From Patescibacteria group bacterium (lineage in GTDB: Bacteria; Patescibacteriota; Patescibacteriia; UBA9934; GWF2-40-263), in the NCBI GenBank assembly GCA_004297215.1, contig SCUM01000001.1, positions 289,181 to 353,180 of the forward strand: a stretch of DNA of 64,000 nt, read 5' to 3'. Below, piece by piece: positions 7,491-51,263 of the stretch. Made by a program: the position numbers and the translations under genes. The first letter of the stretch is position 1; every line of letters begins with the position of its first letter. Below the pieces are notes generated by a model that was not told the DNA's origin, did not search any database, and saw nothing but the letters and a program-made list of their open reading frames with translations.

Positions 7491-7540
7491 ACGAAAGATT
7501 GTGCGCCTGTGGGGGCGGCGCGATTATGCGAACATCATAC

Positions 7541-7565
7541 CAAAAACCCCGCGAACGTTCGCGGG
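7541..7565 (-). terminator. Rho-independent terminator downstream of typA
   Basis: On the minus strand, hairpin CCCGCGAACGTTCGCGGG followed by a TTTTT run. Confidence 0.6.
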
Positions 7566-7580
7566 ACTCCTGTGCACAGC

Positions 7581-9398
7581 CTAGGCGTTCTGCGCCTCGG
7601 CGCGCTTGCGGGCGTTGTAGTCGAGGAAGGTCTTGCGGATGCGGATGGACTTGGGGGTGACCTCCACCAGCTCGTCGTCCCCGATGTACTCGAGGCTCTG
7701 CTCGAGGGTGAGGATGCGCGGGGGCTCGATCGCCACGCTCGCGCCGTCGCCCTTCGAGCGCATGTTGGAGAGCTTCTTCTCCTTGCACGGGTTCACGTCG
7801 ATGTCCTCGGCTCGGGAGTGCTCTCCGATCACCATGCCCACGTACACCTGCGTCCCGACCGGCACGAACATCACCCCGCGCTCCTGCAAGTTGGTGACGG
7901 CGTAGCCCATCACGGTCCCCTGCTCCATGGAGACGATGGACCCGTGTTCATTGGCGCTCACGTCGCCGGCGAGCGGTCGGTAGCCCAAGAGCAGCGTGTT
8001 GATGATCCCCTGGCCCTTCGTATCCGTCATGAACTCGTTGCGGTAGCCGATGAGCCCGCGCGTGGGGATCTCGAACTCCATGAACGCGGTGCCGTTCTCC
8101 ACCTTCATGTCCTTCATGTCGCCGCGGCGCTTGCCCATCTTCTCGATGATGATCCCCTGGAACGCCTCGGGCGCCTCGATGGACACGGCTTCGAACGGCT
8201 CGGTCTTCTCCCCATGCTCCTCGCGGAAGATCACCTGCGGGCGGCTCACCTGCAGCTCGTACCCCTCGCGGCGCATTTTTTCAATCAGAATCGCCAGGTG
8301 CAGCTCGCCGCGCCCGGAAACGATGAACGCGCCGTCGCCTTCGCCTGGGGCGACGCGCAGCGCCACGTCGTTTTGCAGCTCGCGGTCCAGGCGCTCCTTG
8401 ATGTTGCGGCTGGTGGTGAACTGCCCTTCCTGGCCGGCGAACGGCGAGGTGTTCACGCCGAAGGTCATCTTCACGGTGGGTGCTTCCACGTTGAGCACGG
8501 GGAGCGCGACCGGGTTCGTCGGGTCGGCGAAGGTCTCGCCGATCTGCACGTCCTCGACGCCCGCCACGGCGACGATCTCCCCGGCGGACGCCTCGGGCAG
8601 GTCCACGCGCGCGAGCGCCTGGAACCCCTGGATGGCAACGACCTTGGCCGGCTTCACCTTCCCGTCACGGTCGATGTGCGCGATGCTTTGCCCAACCTTG
8701 ATGCGGCCGTTCACCACGCGCCCCACCGCGATGCGGCCCTTGTAGTTGTCGTACATCACGTTGACGATGGACATCTGGAGCGGCTTCTCGACGTCGGCCT
8801 GCGGGGCCGGGATGTGGTCGACGATCGCCTGGAACAGCGGGGTGATGTCGGTCATCGCCTCGAGGTCCGGGGTAAGGCCGGCCTTGCCGTTCACGGCCGA
8901 GGCGTAGATCACCGGGAAATCGGCCTGCTCTTCGCTCGCCCCCAGGTCCACGAACAGGTCGAAGGTGTGGTTGAGCACCCACTCCGGGCGCGCGTCCTTC
9001 TTGTCGATCTTGTTGATGACCACGATCACCTTGTGCCCGGCCTTGATCGCCTGCTTCAACACGAACTTGGTCTGCGGCATCGGCCCCTCCTTGGCGTCCA
9101 CGAGCAGCAGGCAGCCGTCCACCATGCTCATGATGCGCTCCACCTCGCCGCCGAAATCCGCGTGGCCCGGGGTGTCCACGATGTTGAACTTGATGTCCTT
9201 CCACACGATGGACGCGTTCTTGGCGAGGATGGTGATCCCGCGCTCGCGCTCCAATTCGTTCGAGTCCATGATGGTGGTCCCCATCGCGTCCGCGTTGCGG
9301 AACGTGTTGGACTGCTTCAAAAGCGCGTCCACCAGGGTGGTCTTCCCGTGGTCGACGTGGGCGATGATGGCGAAATTGCGCAGGTCAGGACGGGTCAT
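7581..9398 (-). CDS. typA: Translational GTPase TypA/BipA
   Basis: RNFAIIAHVDHGKTTLVD G1 motif and EF-G-like domain order; start is MTRPDL at 9398. The upstream in-frame extension in the ORF track runs through the tRNA-Lys gene and is rejected. Confidence 0.9.
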   Translation of the reverse strand: MTRPDLRNFAIIAHVDHGKTTLVDALLKQSNTFRNADAMGTTIMDSNELERERGITILAKNASIVWKDIKFNIVDTPGHADFGGEVERIMSMVDGCLLLVDAKEGPMPQTKFVLKQAIKAGHKVIVVINKIDKKDARPEWVLNHTFDLFVDLGASEEQADFPVIYASAVNGKAGLTPDLEAMTDITPLFQAIVDHIPAPQADVEKPLQMSIVNVMYDNYKGRIAVGRVVNGRIKVGQSIAHIDRDGKVKPAKVVAIQGFQALARVDLPEASAGEIVAVAGVEDVQIGETFADPTNPVALPVLNVEAPTVKMTFGVNTSPFAGQEGQFTTSRNIKERLDRELQNDVALRVAPGEGDGAFIVSGRGELHLAILIEKMRREGYELQVSRPQVIFREEHGEKTEPFEAVSIEAPEAFQGIIIEKMGKRRGDMKDMKVENGTAFMEFEIPTRGLIGYRNEFMTDTKGQGIINTLLLGYRPLAGDVSANEHGSIVSMEQGTVMGYAVTNLQERGVMFVPVGTQVYVGMVIGEHSRAEDIDVNPCKEKKLSNMRSKGDGASVAIEPPRILTLEQSLEYIGDDELVEVTPKSIRIRKTFLDYNARKRAEAQNA

Positions 9399-9538: not shown

Positions 9539-9789
9539 GTAGTGAGGAGAAAACGAGCTCGCTCGTATTCGACGAACGAGGGTTGGCAACGGCTTTGCCG
9601 TTACCGACCCATGAATGGCCGGATGGTATCCGAAAATCGACGGGAAATCAAGCCCCTCCGACGCTCCAGCCGGGCTGGAGGTCGGAGCCCCGACCCCCGA
9701 AGGGCGTCGGGGTTGACGTCCTCTTCCCCTCTCGTTCTACTTCGCTACAATATCCAGGTCTTCATTCTTTATCCCCACGCGGAGTCCGT

Positions 9790-44179: not shown

Positions 44180-47100
44180 CTATTGGCCCGAAGCGGCAGG
44201 GGCAGATCGGACGAACGCGTTCAGGGCCGCCCTCGTAAGCGGTCCGACCAGGCCGATGGGCGGGATGTTCTTCAATGCCTGAAACGCGGCGACGGCGCGC
44301 TGGGTGATCGGTCCATAGGTGCCGGAGGCGGACACGTCTTCTGGGAAATGCTTGAGGCACCGAAGGATCTCCTGCAGTCGTACGACCGCGTCACCGACGT
44401 TCCCAGGGCCGAGGTTCGAGGTGAACGGCGAGGACAGGACGCAGGCGGAGGCCACCGGCTCGGGGGCCCTAGCCTCGACGCACATGGCCGGATCGTCCTT
44501 CGCGTTGATCGTGCGGATGCTCCCCGCGGCCTCGTGGGTGTCGTTCCAGACCACCCGATCGAGCTTCGGCTCCCCGCGCAAGGACACCTGGAGCGCCAGG
44601 CGGTGGTGCCAGGCGGCGTCCAGTTCGAGCAGTTCGAACGTGACGGCGGAACAGTCGCGTGTATCGACTAGGACGCGGACGTCGTTGTAGTCGAAATCCC
44701 GTCCGGAATCCTCGAACCCGACGATGGTCCTGCCGTCGGCGGCGGGCGTCACGCGGACGTACGGCGTCCCCATATGCCGTTCGGTCCCGTCCGGGTTCAC
44801 GATGTACAGGTCGTACCCGACCTCGTCGCACGCGACCTCGCACGGCGCTGGCAGAGCGTCCGCAGCGGGGACGGACGGAGGAGGCTCGACGTCGGTCGTG
44901 GGCGGAAGCGGCGGGAGGACGCCGGCAGGATCGACGTAGGGTTCTTCCACGTCCTCGACGATCGGAAGGATCGCCCCGACGACGTACGCGCCGTCCTCGT
45001 TGGCGTCGATGAGCGCGTACTGGCCGATGCCAAGATGCGAATCCGGCCAGATGAGCAGGTCACTCACGAGCGCTCCCGCGTTGGACAAGGCGATGCGCAC
45101 GTTGTGGAGCCACCCGGCGTCCACCGCGAGCACGGTCACCACGATCCTGGTCCAGTCCGAGTAGTCCACCCGGATCACGACGTCGTCGAAGTCGAAGTCC
45201 GATCCCTTGTCCTCGAACCGGATGATGTCCACGGTGTCGCTCACGCGCTCGACGCGCGCGTACCGCGGGTCGGTCATGTGGCGCTCGGTCCCGTCGGGAT
45301 TCACGATGTAGATGTCGTAGGACGCGGCGGAGAAGTCGACGTCCGGCGGGGCGGGTTGCGACGGCACGGGTTCGGTCACGGGGCTCGGCGGCGGAAGTTC
45401 GCTCGTCGTCTCCGGCGCGGACGGTTCCGGGGAGGTCGTCGTCCCGGTGTCGGATCCGGGATTGCTCGGAGGGTTCACGACGATGCTCCCTCCCCCGCTG
45501 CGCCGGGTGATTGAGAAGGAGATGTCCGTGGCGTCCGCAGCGGCATACGTCCCGTCGGCGTCGATGTCCGCATCGATGGTGCAGGTGCCAGCCGCGACGA
45601 ACGTGACGATGCCGGTGGTCGAGCCGATGGTGCACACTCCGGTCGTGGTGCTCGTGTACGTCTTGGTACCGGCTCCAGCGGAAGCGGTGGACGTGATGGT
45701 CGGCTCCGCTTCGGTGATCAGGTAACTCGACTCGTACGAGCCCGCGTCGATGGTGAGCGTGCGGGCGGCGAGGGTCACGCTGAAGGAGATGTCCGTGGCG
45801 TCGGCCGTGTCATAGGTGCCGTCGGCGTCGATGTCCGCATCGATGGTGCAGGTGCCGGCGGACACGAACGTGACGATCCCCGTGGTGGAACCGATGGTGC
45901 ACACGCCGGTCGTGGTGCTCGTGTACGTCTTGGTACCGGCTCCAGCGGAAGCGGTGGACGTGATGGTCGGAGGCGTGTCCGTGAGCTCGTAGCTGGCGAC
46001 GTACGAGCCCGCGTCGATGGTGAGCGTGCGGGCGGCGAGGGTCACGCTGAAGGAGATGTCCGTGGCGTCGGCCGCGTCGTAGGTGCCGTCGGCGTCGATG
46101 TCGGCGTCGATGGTGCAGGTGCCGGCCGCGACGAAGGTGACGATACCTGTGGTGGAACCGATGGTGCAGACGCCGGTCGTGGTGCTCGTGTAGCTCTTCG
46201 TCCCCGTTCCGGCGGAGGCGGTCGACGTGATGGTGGGCGGGGTGTCCGTGAGCGAATAGCTGGAGACGTACGAGCCTGCGTCGATCGTGAGCGTGCGGGC
46301 GGCCAAGGTGACCGAGAACGAAATGTCCGTCGCGTCGGCCGTGTCATAGGTGCCGTCGGCGTCGATGTCGGCGTCGATGGTGCAGGTGCCGGCCGCGACG
46401 AAGGTGACGATGCCGGTCGTTGATCCGATTGTACAGACGCCTGTGGTCGTGCTCGTGTACGTCTTCGTTCCCGTCCCGGCGGAGGCGGTCGACGTGATGG
46501 TCGGGGGCGTGTCCGTCATGGAGTAACTGGCCACGTACGAGCCCGCGTCGATGGTGAGAGTGCGGGCGGCCAGCGTCACCGAGAACGAGATGTCCGTCGC
46601 GTCGGCCGTGTCATAGGTGCCGTCGCTCGCGATGTCGGCATCGATCGTGCAGGTGCCGGCCGCGACGAAGGTGACGATGCCGGTGGTCGAGCCGATGGTG
46701 CACACGCCAGTCGTGGTACTCGTGTACGTCTTGGTGCCGGCTCCAGCGGAAGCGGTGGACGTAATCGTCGGCGGCGTGTCCGTGAGCGTGTAGCTCGCGA
46801 CGTACGAGCCGGCGTCGATGGTGAGGGTACGGGACGCCAGGCTCGTGGTGAAGTTCAGGATGGATCCTTCGAACGCGGTCGTGCAAGAGACGTTCGGATA
46901 CGTGCCGGTGAGCGCGCTCGTGCACGCGCGGATCTTGAAATAATAGGTGATCCCGGAGGTGAGGCCGGTCACGGCATAGCTGAACGGCTGGGTGGACGAC
47001 CCGCCGGCCGTGAGCGCGGCCGTGCCGGTGCCGTCGTCGACGGTGACGGTCGTCGTCCCGGAAGAAAGATCCGAGACGGTGCCGTACACGAACTGGATGC

Positions 47101-48970
47101 CGGTGATCGGGGTCAGGTTCGGGTTGATAGTGCCGTTCACCGTCGCCGTAGTCGCGGCCACGCTCGTCGCGGCGGTCGTGGTGGGGGTCGGGTCCGCGAG
47201 CACCGCAAGCGTGGTGAACGACAGGATGGTCCCCTGGGCCGATCCCGCCTTCACGCGATAATAGTAGGTCGTGCCGGACGAGAGGCCAGTGAGGCCGAGG
47301 CTGACCGCCGTCGGGTCCGTGAGCCCGTCGAGCGTGCCGGAGGCCGGCGTGGTCGCGGTCGTGGTCGTCGCCCCGACCAAGGTCGGGCTGGTGCCATACT
47401 CGAACTGGCCGGTGAGCACCGCCGTGCCGTTGGGGTCCACCGTGCCGTTGAGCGTCGCGGCGGAGGCGGTGATACTCGTGGCCGGATCCGTGACTGCCGA
47501 GATGCTGAAATCCGCCGTATCGGCGACGACCCCGACCGTGCTGGTGCCTGTGGAGGTGACCGTAATCCTCGACATCGCTGACGCCGTCGCTCCCACGAGG
47601 AAATCGCCGATCTTGGCGTATGCGGTGTTCGCGAAGCTGCCCACCGGCACCCACATCTCGTAGTCGATGCTCGCGGTCGTGCCGGAATTGAGCGTGAACG
47701 GGCCGGTGAAATGCAGCGGCTTGGGGGCCGCGTCCGCGGTGACGGTCACAGGGTCGCCGATCGCGACCCCGGTGCGGCCGATGTCGGTGACGGTCGCGCT
47801 TCCCGGAATGAAGATGGGGCCGGTTGGCGCTTGGTCCACGAACTCGTCCACCGTGAGCGTGGTGGCCGTCGTCGAAGAGGCGGTGAGGCGGTACGGGACC
47901 TCCACGTACGTCTCGCCGCTGCCGCTTTCCCCGGGAACCGCGCACGCGCCCGTGCAGTCCACGACCGTGAGCCCGGTGGTGGTCGTGACGCTCTTGGTAA
48001 GCGCCGCGTTGATGGTGAGCGAGGCGAACGAGATGTCGAGGGTGCCGCCCGCGGCGCCGGTGTCGGAGTGCTTCACCTGGGTGCCGCTCGCGATCTGGGC
48101 GATCGGCACGGCCGTGACCGTGCTCGTTGGGCGCCCCACCACGCGGAAGCCGTAGGAGATGCGGTATTCGGAGTTGTCGACGTTGGTGAGGCCGTTCGCC
48201 CCCGTGATGAGCAGCTGGTTCGCGTAGGTCACCTGGTCGGCGGTGTTGGCCCAGTTGGCGTTGCCGTCGAAGGTGATGGACACGCTTTCAAGGCGCAGCG
48301 CCCGCGTGGGCCAGGTGGACACGGCCGCGGGCGCGAGCCAGATGATGTCGAAATCCGGGGTGGAACCCGCGCCGATCTGCCCGGTCTGGCCCTCGACCGT
48401 GATCGTGACCAGCTGCCCGAGCTCCGGCGAGGTGTCCGAGACCTCGATCGCCGCGGCGCTCGTGAGCCCGTTGTCCGCGAGCTTGTTGGAGGCCGCCTTG
48501 ATGGTCTCCTGCACCTTGGAGAACGAGAAGTCGCATTCGTACAGCACCGTGGCGCCCGCAAGGTCGGGGCGGTCGTCGTACACCTTGAGCGTGTGCCCCT
48601 GCGCCGACATGGTGGCGCCGGTCGCCTTCAGCATGAAGTAGGAGGTGCCGGTCGAGCCATCGGCGAGCGTCGGGAGTTGCATGGCGCTGTCCAGCGCGTT
48701 CGCGAGCGACACGTTGGACCCCGTGAAGGAACTCACCTGCGCCCACAGGCTCGATTGCGAGGATCCCGTCCCGTTGGTCACCCGGTAACCGATGTAGCCC
48801 GCGTCGAGCACCGGCGTGACGCCCGTGTCGATGTAAAACACGTTCCCATGGCTCGGGACCACCGTGATGCCGTTTTGCGCCGCCGCGCCCGAGGAGCAGG
48901 TGACGGCGGAGACGTCGTGGACGTTCGCGAACAGGGACGCGAACGCGGCAAAGACGATGATGCCGCACAT
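44180..48970 (-). CDS. Giant cell-surface protein (~1596 aa): signal peptide, FN3/Ig-like modules, five tandem ~88-aa repeats, two DUF4114-like modules, and a C-terminal peptidoglycan-binding domain
   Basis: Signal peptide MCGIIVFAAFASLFANVHDVSA. FN3-like ...SGTTYYYRVKAGS. Five copies of LAARTLTIDAGSYVASY..TDTPPTITSTASAG.GTKTYTSTTTGVCTIGSTTGIVTFVAAGTCTIDADI..DGTYD.ADATDISFSVT. Two copies of YD(I/L)YIVNPDGTERHM...FED(K/S)G(S/R)DFD(F/Y)(D/N)DV. PG-binding GNVGDAVVRLQEILRCLKHFP...GTYGPITQRAVAAFQ. Confidence 0.8.
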   Translation of the reverse strand: MCGIIVFAAFASLFANVHDVSAVTCSSGAAAQNGITVVPSHGNVFYIDTGVTPVLDAGYIGYRVTNGTGSSQSSLWAQVSSFTGSNVSLANALDSAMQLPTLADGSTGTSYFMLKATGATMSAQGHTLKVYDDRPDLAGATVLYECDFSFSKVQETIKAASNKLADNGLTSAAAIEVSDTSPELGQLVTITVEGQTGQIGAGSTPDFDIIWLAPAAVSTWPTRALRLESVSITFDGNANWANTADQVTYANQLLITGANGLTNVDNSEYRISYGFRVVGRPTSTVTAVPIAQIASGTQVKHSDTGAAGGTLDISFASLTINAALTKSVTTTTGLTVVDCTGACAVPGESGSGETYVEVPYRLTASSTTATTLTVDEFVDQAPTGPIFIPGSATVTDIGRTGVAIGDPVTVTADAAPKPLHFTGPFTLNSGTTASIDYEMWVPVGSFANTAYAKIGDFLVGATASAMSRITVTSTGTSTVGVVADTADFSISAVTDPATSITASAATLNGTVDPNGTAVLTGQFEYGTSPTLVGATTTTATTPASGTLDGLTDPTAVSLGLTGLSSGTTYYYRVKAGSAQGTILSFTTLAVLADPTPTTTAATSVAATTATVNGTINPNLTPITGIQFVYGTVSDLSSGTTTVTVDDGTGTAALTAGGSSTQPFSYAVTGLTSGITYYFKIRACTSALTGTYPNVSCTTAFEGSILNFTTSLASRTLTIDAGSYVASYTLTDTPPTITSTASAGAGTKTYTSTTTGVCTIGSTTGIVTFVAAGTCTIDADIASDGTYDTADATDISFSVTLAARTLTIDAGSYVASYSMTDTPPTITSTASAGTGTKTYTSTTTGVCTIGSTTGIVTFVAAGTCTIDADIDADGTYDTADATDISFSVTLAARTLTIDAGSYVSSYSLTDTPPTITSTASAGTGTKSYTSTTTGVCTIGSTTGIVTFVAAGTCTIDADIDADGTYDAADATDISFSVTLAARTLTIDAGSYVASYELTDTPPTITSTASAGAGTKTYTSTTTGVCTIGSTTGIVTFVSAGTCTIDADIDADGTYDTADATDISFSVTLAARTLTIDAGSYESSYLITEAEPTITSTASAGAGTKTYTSTTTGVCTIGSTTGIVTFVAAGTCTIDADIDADGTYAAADATDISFSITRRSGGGSIVVNPPSNPGSDTGTTTSPEPSAPETTSELPPPSPVTEPVPSQPAPPDVDFSAASYDIYIVNPDGTERHMTDPRYARVERVSDTVDIIRFEDKGSDFDFDDVVIRVDYSDWTRIVVTVLAVDAGWLHNVRIALSNAGALVSDLLIWPDSHLGIGQYALIDANEDGAYVVGAILPIVEDVEEPYVDPAGVLPPLPPTTDVEPPPSVPAADALPAPCEVACDEVGYDLYIVNPDGTERHMGTPYVRVTPAADGRTIVGFEDSGRDFDYNDVRVLVDTRDCSAVTFELLELDAAWHHRLALQVSLRGEPKLDRVVWNDTHEAAGSIRTINAKDDPAMCVEARAPEPVASACVLSSPFTSNLGPGNVGDAVVRLQEILRCLKHFPEDVSASGTYGPITQRAVAAFQALKNIPPIGLVGPLTRAALNAFVRSAPAASGQ
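45495..46850. repeat. Five tandem ~265-bp DNA repeats encoding the 88-aa protein repeats of the giant surface protein
   Basis: Near-identical blocks beginning (minus-strand sense) around 46850, 46590, 46323, 46055, 45790 and 45522. Confidence 0.75.
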
Positions 48971-49068
48971 CCCGATCGCCTTGCCCGCCGAAAACGAGCC
49001 GATTTGACATCGCATATATTGACCCTATCCTACCATGTTCCAATGGAACAGGAGGCGTCCCGTCTCGC

Positions 49069-49354: not shown

Positions 49355-49371
49355 ACGCCGCGGCAGTATGT

Positions 49372-49400
49372 CAAAAACCCGCCCTCTTGTGAAGGGCGGG
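49372..49400 (-). terminator. Rho-independent terminator after rpmG
   Basis: On the minus strand, CCCGCCC-TTCACAAGA-GGGCGGG followed by TTTTT. Confidence 0.6.
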
Positions 49401-49699: not shown

Positions 49700-49790
49700 A
49701 TATTTCTTCTACCAAGTCCGACGCCCTGATGGGGTCGGACCCCCGACCTGCGCCGCAGCGCAGCGTCGGGGCTGAGCTACAACGGCGTGT
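49700..49790 (-). pseudogene. tRNA-Thr 5' fragment (acceptor plus D-arm, 25 nt, identical to tRNA-Thr GGU) interrupted in the D-loop by a structured 57-nt insert; non-functional tRNA-like element
   Basis: Minus strand reads GCCGTTGTAGCTCAG[CCCCGACGCTGCGCTGCGGCGCAGGTCGGGGGTCCGACCCCATCAGGGCGTCGGAC]TTGGTAGAagaaatat and is immediately followed by the intact tRNA-Thr(GGU). Confidence 0.5.
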
Positions 49791-49837
49791 TTTTATCGCG
49801 ATGGCCCCGCCAGCCGAAGCCCCTCAAGGGCGAAGGC

Positions 49838-49912
49838 TGGAGCCGCCTGTCGGATTTGAACCGACGACCTGCTGTTTACAAAACAGCTGCTCTACCCCTG
49901 AGCTAAGGCGGC
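49838..49912 (-). tRNA. tRNA-Thr (anticodon UGU), CCA encoded
   Basis: GCCGCCT-TA-GCTCAGGGGTAGAGC-A-GCTGT-TTTGTAA-ACAGC-AGGTC-GTCGG-TTCAAAT-CCGAC-AGGCGGC-T-CCA. Confidence 0.8.
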
Positions 49913-50167: not shown

Positions 50168-50301
50168 GCCCTTCGACAAGCTCAAGGCATTCGACTCCTT
50201 TCCTGTTCCCTACGGAAGCGTTTTGCGTCGTATGGTCGCAGACCATGAGCGATCGTCTACCACGGACTCACTGCCCTTCGACAAGCTCAGGGCATTCGAC
50301 T
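50168..50301. repeat. Two 29-nt direct repeats GCCCTTCGACAAGCTCA(A/G)GGCATTCGACT, 105 nt apart, between the GIY-YIG gene and tRNA-Tyr
   Basis: Copies at 50168-50196 and 50273-50301, identical except for one position. Confidence 0.7.
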
Positions 50302-50330
50302 ACCACATAAACGGCACGAAGGTAGTCGAA

Positions 50331-50416
50331 TGGTGGGTGGAGAAGGGTTCGAACCTTCGAAGGCGTGAGCCAGGAGATTTACAGTCTCCCCCGTTTGACC
50401 ACTTCGGTATCCACCC
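50331..50416 (-). tRNA. tRNA-Tyr (anticodon GUA), long variable arm, CCA encoded
   Basis: GGGTGGA-TA-CCG-AAGTGGTCAAA-CGG-G-GGAGA-CTGTAAA-TCTCC-TGGCTCACGCCTTC-GAAGG-TTCGAAC-CCTTC-TCCACCC-A-CCA. Confidence 0.8.
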
Positions 50417-50450
50417 GTTGGTTGGAAAGGTGCCGAAAGGATAGCAAAAC

Positions 50451-51263
50451 CTATCCTTCTTGTGAAGGCTCGGCCTCTGGCAGCGCTGACAGGCTTTCCT
50501 CGAAGACGGGGATCTTCTGGTTGTCAGGATTGCTCGCCTTGAGGCTCGCAATCCCCTTCTCGGCGTCCTTGCGTTCCTTGGCGAGGAGCGCGGTCTCGAT
50601 GTAGCGGTCGAGGTACTTGGGATTGTGGGGCCGCTTCTCCACGGACTCGCGCAGGTGCGCGAGCGCGGCCTGCGTCTTCCCTTCGGCCAGGTCAAGGTCC
50701 GCGAGGCTCATGTGAACCGAAGCGTCCCCCGGAGAAAGGCGCAGCGCGAACGCGAGCGCCTCGCGCGCCTGGTCGTACTGCTTCACCTCGAAATACAGGT
50801 TCCCGAGCCCCTCGTACGCCTCGGCGCACTTCGGGGAATGGCTGATCGCCTCGATGTACTTCTTCTCGGCCTGGATGGGCTCGCCCTCGCGCGCGAACGC
50901 TTCCGCGGCCTCGAGCATCCCGCGGACGGCCTCGGGACCGACCGCCGCGCCGGCGTGCGATGGCGCGCGCTTGAGCTTCTGGTAGTACTGCTCCATCCTG
51001 TACAGCCGCTGCACGGCGAGGCGTCCGAGGCGCATGGCCCCCTTCCCCCCGGCGATGACGGCGCGACCGAGGCGCCCGAGCTTCTCGCTTTGCAGCCGCG
51101 CCACGCGATCGAGGATGATCGCCTCCTTCACGCGCCTGGTCCGCTCATCCGAGTCCGTGGACGTCTCCATCACCCGCAACTGCGGGATCTTGCGGACCAC
51201 GATCACGCCAAGCACCGCGACGGAGGCGAGGAGCAGGAGGAGGGGGATGAGCCAGAGCACCAT
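50451..51263 (-). CDS. Membrane-anchored TPR-repeat protein
   Basis: Start MVLWLIPLLLLLASVAVLG (TM). TPR-like repeats AEAYEGLGNLYFEVKQYDQAREALAFALRLSP. Confidence 0.6.
   Translation of the reverse strand: MVLWLIPLLLLLASVAVLGVIVVRKIPQLRVMETSTDSDERTRRVKEAIILDRVARLQSEKLGRLGRAVIAGGKGAMRLGRLAVQRLYRMEQYYQKLKRAPSHAGAAVGPEAVRGMLEAAEAFAREGEPIQAEKKYIEAISHSPKCAEAYEGLGNLYFEVKQYDQAREALAFALRLSPGDASVHMSLADLDLAEGKTQAALAHLRESVEKRPHNPKYLDRYIETALLAKERKDAEKGIASLKASNPDNQKIPVFEESLSALPEAEPSQEG

Follow-up and report, generated by a model that had tools for sequence, protein, structure and literature searches.

A tRNA-Thr 5' fragment split by a double-hairpin element in a Patescibacteria genome: probable scar of a small tRNA-targeting selfish element

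Why should a bacterial genome carry, directly in front of an intact transfer RNA (tRNA) gene, the beginning of that same gene broken in its D-loop by two hairpins? This arrangement was found in a 64-kb stretch of DNA from a Patescibacteria group bacterium (GCA_004297215.1, contig SCUM01000001.1, positions 289,181 to 353,180), which is hereafter called the window and is always meant as a whole. On its minus strand, a 5' fragment of tRNA-Thr is interrupted by an insert of two hairpins (hereafter the double-hairpin element, or simply the element), and the intact tRNA-Thr(GGU) gene follows immediately. We consider that this feature is probably the non-functional scar of a small selfish element, made of hairpins with or without a gene for a GIY-YIG nuclease, at tRNA-Thr(GGU). 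Several observations bear on this reading: the element belongs to a family with a target preference, it recurs in duplications that spare the intact tRNA, a cassette containing a GIY-YIG gene and a deletion intermediate of it exist elsewhere, and the insert is present in some relatives and absent from others.

An initial annotation, made from the sequence alone, had described a tRNA-Thr 5' half with a D-loop insert upstream of the intact gene. The feature is real, but the insert measures 56 nucleotides (nt) rather than 57 and the strand to be read is the minus strand. The first 15 nt and the D-loop continuation are identical to the intact tRNA, as had been stated, and tRNA similarity is indeed lost after nt 23 (table 1). 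The first part of the fragment stops at D-loop position 15/16, which is where the element sits, and the two hairpins can be read directly in the sequence. RNA folding of positions 49800-49700 gave -48.5 kcal/mol versus -34.0 +/- 3.5 kcal/mol in shuffled sequences (z = -4.1). The fragment does not qualify as a tRNA gene or tRNA pseudogene, as neither ARAGORN nor the Rfam tRNA model (RF00005) gave a tRNA call over 49700-49790, even at E <= 10. In a repeat search of the window, leader plus fragment was paired with the intact copy (repeat family D1, 21 nt, 90% identity), and the two copies lie 87 nt apart, start to start. Because the leaders AAACAC and AAATAT resemble each other, the duplicated segment possibly includes a few bases on the 5' side of the tRNA. 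The spacer between fragment and intact gene is A+T-rich, and the genome has 65% G+C. An assembly artefact is unlikely, because the whole feature is also present in a contig from a separate assembly (L251, Logan SRR8426588), which matches with 100% identity over 466 nt.

Comparison of the insert with similar sequences revealed a family of the form (C)CCCGACG-top-GTCGGGRN-TCCGAC-top-CGTCGGA(N), in which a single hairpin unit, YCCGAC-top-C-GTCGGR, is present twice in inverted orientation. A search pattern that contained the shared stem feet only (CCCGACG-N6-30-GTCGGG-NN-TCCGAC-N6-30-CGTCGGA) occurred twice in the window, whereas 0.00 occurrences were expected from 100 shuffles. When the genomes of GTDB were scanned, one genome per species, the pattern matched at least 120 genome stretches. 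Among the 80 loci listed, about 59 belong to Patescibacteria/candidate phyla radiation (CPR), nine to Omnitrophota, five to Planctomycetes, one to Saprospiraceae, and one to a gammaproteobacterium; the source organism of the window, near Uhrbacteria, is likewise of the Patescibacteria group. Self-complementarity is strong in the hairpin tops, on which the pattern places no constraint (248 segments, p = 9e-39). In the subfamily closest to the window copy (window, L017, L033, and L094), hairpin 2 is 100% paired with two compensatory pair changes, both of which fall in its 3-bp top.

Hairpin 1 is the inverted form of hairpin 2, and short tops correspond as reverse complements (CTTTCG to CGAAAG and CTTGCG to CGCAAG); some elements are even nested inside the loops of others. 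We also considered an enrichment of RNA-type tetraloops, as short tops read C-GNRA-G. This was rejected because the partner hairpin holds the reverse complement of such a top, which points to DNA symmetry rather than to a signal in single-stranded RNA; a fold-based count of loops is confounded by an alternative fold into one long hairpin. Rfam 15, searched over both elements of the window at gathering and permissive thresholds, gave chance-level matches only, namely F6 with 18.5 bits (gathering 46) and b55 with 17 bits (gathering 70). The stem-foot pattern had no match in 2.9 million viral contigs, and a 16-mer search of viral contigs gave four matches. A blastn-short search of the insert within the window returned nothing beyond the second element near tRNA-Lys, and single CCGAC...GTCGG hairpins elsewhere in the window occur in about the number expected by chance (hand estimate).

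Analysis of the flanks suggested where such elements insert. The left flank reads TCAR(Y) in 14% of copies versus 0.37% in the background, and the right flank tends to G-YWG. Most tRNA genes have a D-loop box, CTCAG^TTGG, that agrees with this preference, and it is exactly there that the window element sits. The flanks of 120 copies had no clear excess of direct repeats over shuffled pairs, that is, no sign of target-site duplication. A possible palindromic extension of the element into its flanks was discarded: levels 2-3 do not covary, and the flank signal is therefore a target preference and not part of the element.

About one-third of the elements are located in long open frames, although the window copy lies outside any open reading frame (ORF). 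Length (core + 2) is divisible by 3 in 29 of the 38 copies in long open frames versus 46 of 86 elsewhere, but the open-frame criterion is weak, as random positions qualify in 54% of cases versus 31% for elements. In five loci (L056, L070, L085, L109, and L123) the element extends the Ala/Pro-rich hinge of ribosomal protein L7/L12 in frame, following ...KFGVSAAA and adding approximately 15 residues such as PTLAVGTPT..VGA.

The layout seen in the window recurs beside other tRNA genes. In the genome set, a tRNA was found no more than 200 nt away from 21 of 124 elements, and about 13 loci have the same order: a tRNA 5' part, the element, a few tRNA nucleotides, a spacer, and an intact tRNA that is usually cognate (L008, L010, L017, L023, L041, L051, L055, L090, L097, L110, L117, and L124 are of the window type). 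Two T-loop insertions (L052 and L080) are the mirror image, with the intact tRNA first and a 3' fragment after it. Near-full-length tRNA copies interrupted by the element were found in L086, L094, L195, and L249; those of L086 and L094 are interrupted several times and stand beside intact ones. A metagenome scan, for which the query was TAGCTCAG followed by the first bases of the element, gave 123 matches, 46 of which have an intact cognate tRNA downstream, mostly identical at 15/15 positions. The isotypes among these 46 loci include Thr (GGU, UGU, and CGU), Val, Ile, Lys, Phe, Met, Asn, and Arg. Two of the loci (L150 and L165) have the layout at the same tRNA-Thr(GGU) as the window, and in L150 the second part of the fragment likewise stops after the same 8 nt; the three loci have unrelated hairpin tops and spacers. 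Leaders are duplicated at 10/10 positions in L165, L139, and L224. The unit of fragment, element, few tRNA nucleotides, and spacer is found twice in tandem before the intact tRNA in L008, L139, and L224, so scars can expand into arrays. When the element was excised in silico (0 or 1 nt of padding, then ARAGORN), a tRNA was restored in only 1 of 124 cases, and there beside an intact copy; this is not the behavior of introns in sole-copy genes. The initial annotation had offered an integration scar at a tRNA gene as one possibility, and this much of it holds: the element is recurrent at the D-loop position beside intact cognate tRNAs. A classical integrase-borne island, on the other hand, is not what lies here.

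Several other structures were noted at these loci. In L195 (minus strand, ~480-560), an otherwise full-length, element-interrupted tRNA-Thr(CGU)-like copy with the 5' acceptor strand of tRNA-Thr(GGU), GCCGTTG, lies just downstream of the intact tRNA-Thr(CGU) and looks like the product of recombination between cassettes of different tRNAs. The intact tRNA-Thr(GGU) below the scar has an anticodon-loop insert of ~250 nt that resembles a group I intron in L137 (~7500-7900) and L149 (~470-800). Another repeat family, with a single hairpin, CCC[AG][GT]ACC.GAGC-loop-GCTC.GGT[AG]C[GT]GGG, was observed in the D-loops of tRNA 5' fragments before intact tRNAs in L055 (~1560-1600), L086 (~2750-2800), and L177 (~60-120).

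Relatives of the source organism allowed us to compare the locus with and without the insert. A block of genes (RRF, an aminoacyl-tRNA synthetase, M16, TIM, and TPR) is syntenic in L001-L004 and L150. L001 has tRNA-Tyr, 8 nt, tRNA-Thr(UGU), 15 nt, tRNA-Thr(GGU), and rpmG, and contains no nuclease gene, fragment, or tRNA-Gly; in L003/L004 the genes are arranged as Thr(GGU)-Tyr-Thr(UGU), again with no fragment, even though the tRNA-Thr(GGU) of L003 is identical to that of the window at 76/76 positions. Thus, L001, L002, and L003/L004 lack the insert, whereas the window, L150, L165, and L175 have it at tRNA-Thr(GGU). We therefore read the GIY-YIG ORF before tRNA-Thr(UGU) and the fragment with its element before tRNA-Thr(GGU) as insertions into an ancestrally compact cluster. 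The expectation of a tRNA-Gly at this position, from the initial annotation, failed: Tyr/Thr(UGU)/Thr(GGU) clusters of four syntenic relatives and L165 contain none. An exact look-up of L33 found the identical contig only, and the contigs of the nearest TPR homologues end before reaching the tRNA. In L003/L004 (4910-5220), the spacers between tRNAs are filled with small G+C-rich hairpins with GCTNAGC-type loops, which are unrelated in sequence to the CCGAC family.

A link to GIY-YIG nucleases emerged from the spacers between fragment and intact tRNA. Spacers in the 46 metagenome loci are 0-161 nt long in 38 and 201-288 nt long in the other eight, and all eight long ones encode a GIY-YIG protein of ~86 amino acids (aa) (tblastn E <= 1e-22; L175, L169, L143, L237, L239, L212, L179, and L184). 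These proteins match Pfam PF01541. The ORF begins a few to ~30 nt past the tRNA fragment and ends at the intact tRNA; L175 carries the full cassette at tRNA-Thr(GGU), with a protein of 86 aa. In L177, whose spacer is 98 nt long, the N- and C-terminal ends of the ORF are fused, and by its sequence we take this locus to be a deletion intermediate. Of the 17 GIY-YIG ORFs in the genome set, 9 have an element at a distance of 175 nt or less, compared with a roughly estimated expectation of ~10%. A less biased test used six homologues of the L175 protein that had been selected solely by how long their contigs were. All six ORFs are immediately upstream of or close to a tRNA, and three of them use the TAG within the tRNA TAGCTCAG (or TAGCGCAG) box as their stop codon. 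A tRNA 5' fragment with the hairpin element stands just upstream of the ORF in five of the six; in the sixth, the ORF has an intact tRNA-Ala upstream and a disrupted second tRNA-Ala downstream, with the element in the D-loop of the latter. The order of fragment, element, ORF, and tRNA is fixed, and the element precedes the start codon by 17-30 nt. We found no account of the hairpin family or of this cassette in Rfam or in the searchable literature, which is incomplete, so that an earlier description is possible; both are apparently undescribed.

Taken together, a reasonable hypothesis for the origin of the window feature is as follows. The element inserts preferably after TCAR, and the D-loop box CTCAG^TTGG of most tRNA genes is a fitting target. 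Insertion into a sole tRNA gene would be lethal, and surviving copies would therefore be those in a tandem 5' duplicate upstream of an intact copy; the survivor would consist of leader, nt 1-15, the element, and nt 16-23, directly upstream of the intact gene. In the full-length form, the ~86-aa GIY-YIG ORF is placed between the element-bearing fragment and the tRNA, its stop codon abutting or overlapping the latter. The nuclease might break tRNA genes, and repair might then copy the whole cassette, for which the duplicated 5' part would supply homology on the left, as a portable arm, and the tRNA body on the right. Such a cassette could enter any genome that has the tRNA in question. The 8-nt spacer of the window may be what remained after loss of the ORF, or may reflect a solo insertion of the element.

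A number of points weigh against this interpretation. The loci were retrieved by patterns that contain the element, and the association figures are biased accordingly, except for the six-homologue test. The window locus has neither a nuclease ORF nor a remnant of one, its spacer being so short. Elsewhere an ORF remnant was detected in 1 of ~16 medium-length spacers, so many solo copies may never have carried an ORF. The GIY-YIG gene that the window does contain, 125 nt upstream, is of another subfamily and is preceded by neither element nor fragment. Approximately 100 of the 124 elements are near neither a tRNA nor a GIY-YIG gene; spread of the element is thus possible in their absence, and the hypothesis does not account for an enzyme that mobilizes such distant copies. 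Moreover, the hypothesis has to infer the origin of the short duplication and does not explain how the intact tRNA of a cassette escapes being cut, or cut again, and the transcribed hairpins may have a role of their own.

Some of these points also suit a rival account, in which a hairpin resembling repetitive extragenic palindromic (REP) sequences or MITEs (transposable elements of the miniature inverted-repeat type) inserted independently into a pre-existing, unrelated duplication of the tRNA 5' end. No cassette would ever have been at the locus, and GIY-YIG genes would be associated with the element elsewhere only as both accumulate beside tRNA genes. Elements do far outnumber GIY-YIG ORFs and occur in ORFs and intergenic DNA where no tRNA fragment is found, most tRNA-associated copies (38/46) have short spacers with just one ORF remnant, and the element has a target preference of its own that fits the D-loop. 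Against this, no 5'-fragment duplication lacking the hairpin element at the break was found among all tRNAs in the retrieved loci, and duplication and element therefore look coupled. The constant order and the narrow range of distances to the start codon in the six-homologue test, together with the putative deletion intermediate L177, also argue for a cassette, and we regard independent insertion as unlikely.

A second alternative, much less probable than independent insertion, is that the hairpins are a functional RNA element of the polycistronic tRNA transcript, such as a signal for processing or stability, a decoy 5' half, or a tRNA-derived small RNA; a structured small RNA or processing signal had also been among the proposals of the initial annotation. 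Promoter-like and terminator-like sites were confined to the two ends of the cluster, before tRNA-Tyr and after rpmG, and the fragment is therefore probably co-transcribed in a Tyr-GIY-Thr-Thr-rpmG precursor and then trimmed off during tRNA processing. Location inside this probable single transcription unit, folding much better than that of shuffled sequences, compensatory changes that keep the hairpins paired, and the occurrence of such a leader at the same tRNA in several lineages would all suit a function in RNA. However, the tops and spacers at this tRNA have nothing in common among the window, L150, and L165, and syntenic relatives manage with spacers of 8-15 nt and no element. In addition, the two-fold symmetry of the element is of the DNA type, it is also found in frame within protein genes such as that of L7/L12, and it matches no Rfam family.

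The last alternative, a decayed intron-containing or split tRNA gene whose D-loop intervening sequence became the hairpins, as had also been proposed, is hardly credible: excision of the 56 nt does rejoin the D-loop exactly, tRNA-Thr(GGU) of relatives L137 and L149 does have an intron-like insert in its anticodon loop, possibly a group I intron, and a few near-full-length copies are interrupted by the element (L086, L094, L195, and L249), but in the window the tRNA sequence ends at nt 23 with the 3' two-thirds missing, an intact cognate gene accompanies every interrupted copy seen, excision restored a tRNA in the single case mentioned above, and the element is neither a group I nor a group II intron by Rfam.

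The surroundings of the scar are summarized in table 1. The tRNA genes of this region all lie on the minus strand, where the order is tRNA-Tyr, GIY-YIG ORF, tRNA-Thr(UGU), fragment with element, tRNA-Thr(GGU), rpmG, and tRNA-Trp. The GIY-YIG ORF belongs to a YhbQ-like subfamily, different from the cassette nuclease, and a gap of 1 nt separates its stop codon from tRNA-Thr(UGU). Two direct repeats of 29 nt, GCCCTTCGACAAGCTCARGGCATTCGACT (50168-50196 and 50273-50301), precede this ORF, and a perfect 12-bp hairpin directly follows tRNA-Tyr (50293-50332, minus strand). Another hairpin, CCAGCC...GGCTGG (49810-49840, minus strand), begins within the CCA end of tRNA-Thr(UGU) and occupies part of the 51-nt gap between this gene and the fragment. 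The promoter-like sites upstream of tRNA-Tyr and of tRNA-Trp (TTCACA-17-TATCCT/CATACT) coincide with the two copies of a 31-nt direct repeat (49365-49395 and 50438-50468; 74% identity), of which the one at tRNA-Trp overlaps with the terminator of rpmG. Farther along, a 1611-aa ORF (44180-49015, minus strand) contains five near-identical tandem repeats of ~70 aa (TLTIDAGSY...DISFSVTLAAR) and duplicated C-terminal modules, and looks like a large surface protein. Near the second element of the window, the first 9 nt of tRNA-Lys are repeated as GGGTCGGTA (9610-9602, minus strand) closer to the gene than the element is, followed by small hairpins, a T-run, and then the intact tRNA-Lys (region 9539-9720). 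This stretch may be another decayed scar of the fragment type.

Table 1. Positions of the fragment, the two elements, and neighboring genes in the window
Feature	Position	Strand	Remarks
tRNA-Tyr	50416-50331	minus	
GIY-YIG ORF	50246-49914	minus	Pfam PF01541, E = 2.9e-9; conserved domain from ~50155
tRNA-Thr(UGU)	49912-49838	minus	
Leader of fragment, AAACAC	49787..49792	minus	Resembles AAATAT before the intact gene
Fragment A, GCCGTTGTAGCTCAG	49786-49772	minus	15/15 identical to nt 1-15 of tRNA-Thr(GGU) (49699-49685)
Element, hairpin 1	49771-49741	minus	CCCCGAC-G(bulge)-CTGCGC-TGCG-GCGCAG-GTCGGGG
Element, hairpin 2	49740-49716	minus	GTCCGAC-CCC-ATCA-GGG-C(bulge)-GTCGGAC
Fragment B, TTGGTAGA	49715-49708	minus	8/8 identical to nt 16-23 of tRNA-Thr(GGU) (49684-49677)
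Spacer, AGAAATAT	49707-49700	minus	8 nt, then intact gene
Intact tRNA-Thr(GGU)	49699-49624	minus	ARAGORN; Rfam 69 bits
rpmG	49575-49411	minus	
tRNA-Trp	49354-49281	minus	
Second copy of the element	9656-9712	minus	Other hairpin tops; ~117 nt upstream of tRNA-Lys

By itself the locus is a harmless and ordinary scar of selfish DNA. Nevertheless, it exposes a recurrent and apparently unreported colonization of essential tRNA genes in streamlined CPR genomes. As a tentative extension, which we consider possible but doubtful, double hairpins and ~86-aa GIY-YIG proteins might form a two-part mobile system similar to RAYT-REPIN, driven by the nuclease, targeting the universally conserved D-loop box, regenerating its target by 5' duplication, and crossing phyla through a tRNA homology arm; hairpins lacking an ORF would then account for the hitherto unexplained short insertions in RNA and protein genes of CPR bacteria. 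If the nuclease link is true, the cassettes would represent a new class of tRNA-directed homing element and a source of sequence- or structure-specific GIY-YIG nucleases, and could possibly explain the short insertions in CPR RNA and protein genes. They would also be a warning for tRNA annotation and for pipelines that read duplications of tRNA fragments as integrase att sites.

With such att sites the window feature shares a partial tRNA copy beside an intact tRNA, an insertion footprint that spares function. Unlike them, it duplicates the 5' rather than the 3' part, the copies begin 87 nt apart, and the space between them holds hairpins only, with no integrase and no cargo. Elements of the IS200/IS605 group and their ORF-less derivatives have hairpin ends, insert 3' of a short specific sequence, and produce no target-site duplication, and their small non-autonomous derivatives are little more than two hairpins. 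The present element differs from them in that its hairpins are inverted rather than direct and no TnpA or TnpB was seen adjoining. Classification as a MITE with terminal inverted repeats was rejected, as the 120 copies examined had no target-site duplication of fixed length.

REP dimers (REPINs) are closer. Like them, the element consists of short G+C-rich hairpin units, imperfect palindromes joined as inverted dimers, dispersed (two copies in the 64 kb of the window and hundreds across genomes) and variable in their stem tops. Like REP sequences and Rickettsia palindromic elements, it is found at times in frame within protein genes, where copies in ORFs tend to keep the reading frame, and it leaves no target-site duplication. 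It has no GTAG tag; its outer ends read CGTCGG, similar to the CGTC-tagged REP families, among which Rickettsia palindromic elements are included (Di Nocera et al. 2013, PMC3733652), although here the GTC takes part in pairing. The four CGTC families have 8-9-bp stems starting with A/T, from which the stems and loops of our element differ (PMC3733652). In contrast to REPINs, no link to a RAYT transposase was seen, although no search was aimed at RAYT, and the element is instead physically linked to a GIY-YIG ORF and tRNA genes; its hosts (CPR, Omnitrophota, and Planctomycetes) also set it apart from the REP families.

For the cassette, the most similar system is SegB of phages T4/T6, a free-standing GIY-YIG homing endonuclease that recognizes a conserved tRNA motif, sits in tRNA clusters, is linked to many tRNA isotypes, and drives tandem segmental amplification (PMC2330249, PMC13096335). 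The cassette GIY-YIG gene is likewise located between or beside tRNA genes of many isotypes, and related genomes are polymorphic for presence of the insert, although at the window locus the insert contains no GIY-YIG ORF. Unlike SegB, the cassette ORFs encode only ~86 aa with no separate DNA-binding domain visible and are known from sequence alone; they abut the tRNA 5' end, and before them lies a duplicate of the tRNA 5' part that the hairpin element interrupts. They are also cellular, as the viral contigs did not contain the double-hairpin pattern.

Finally, rRNA genes of CPR bacteria contain ORF-less insertions of <200 bp at the tops or bases of rRNA stem-loops, as well as GIY-YIG ORFs in insertions that are not introns (PMC11270868). 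That report mentions neither tRNA genes nor palindromes. Among described elements, the nearest are REP dimers/REPINs, including the CGTC-tagged ones, SegB-type free-standing endonucleases, and these insertions and GIY-YIG ORFs in CPR rRNA genes.

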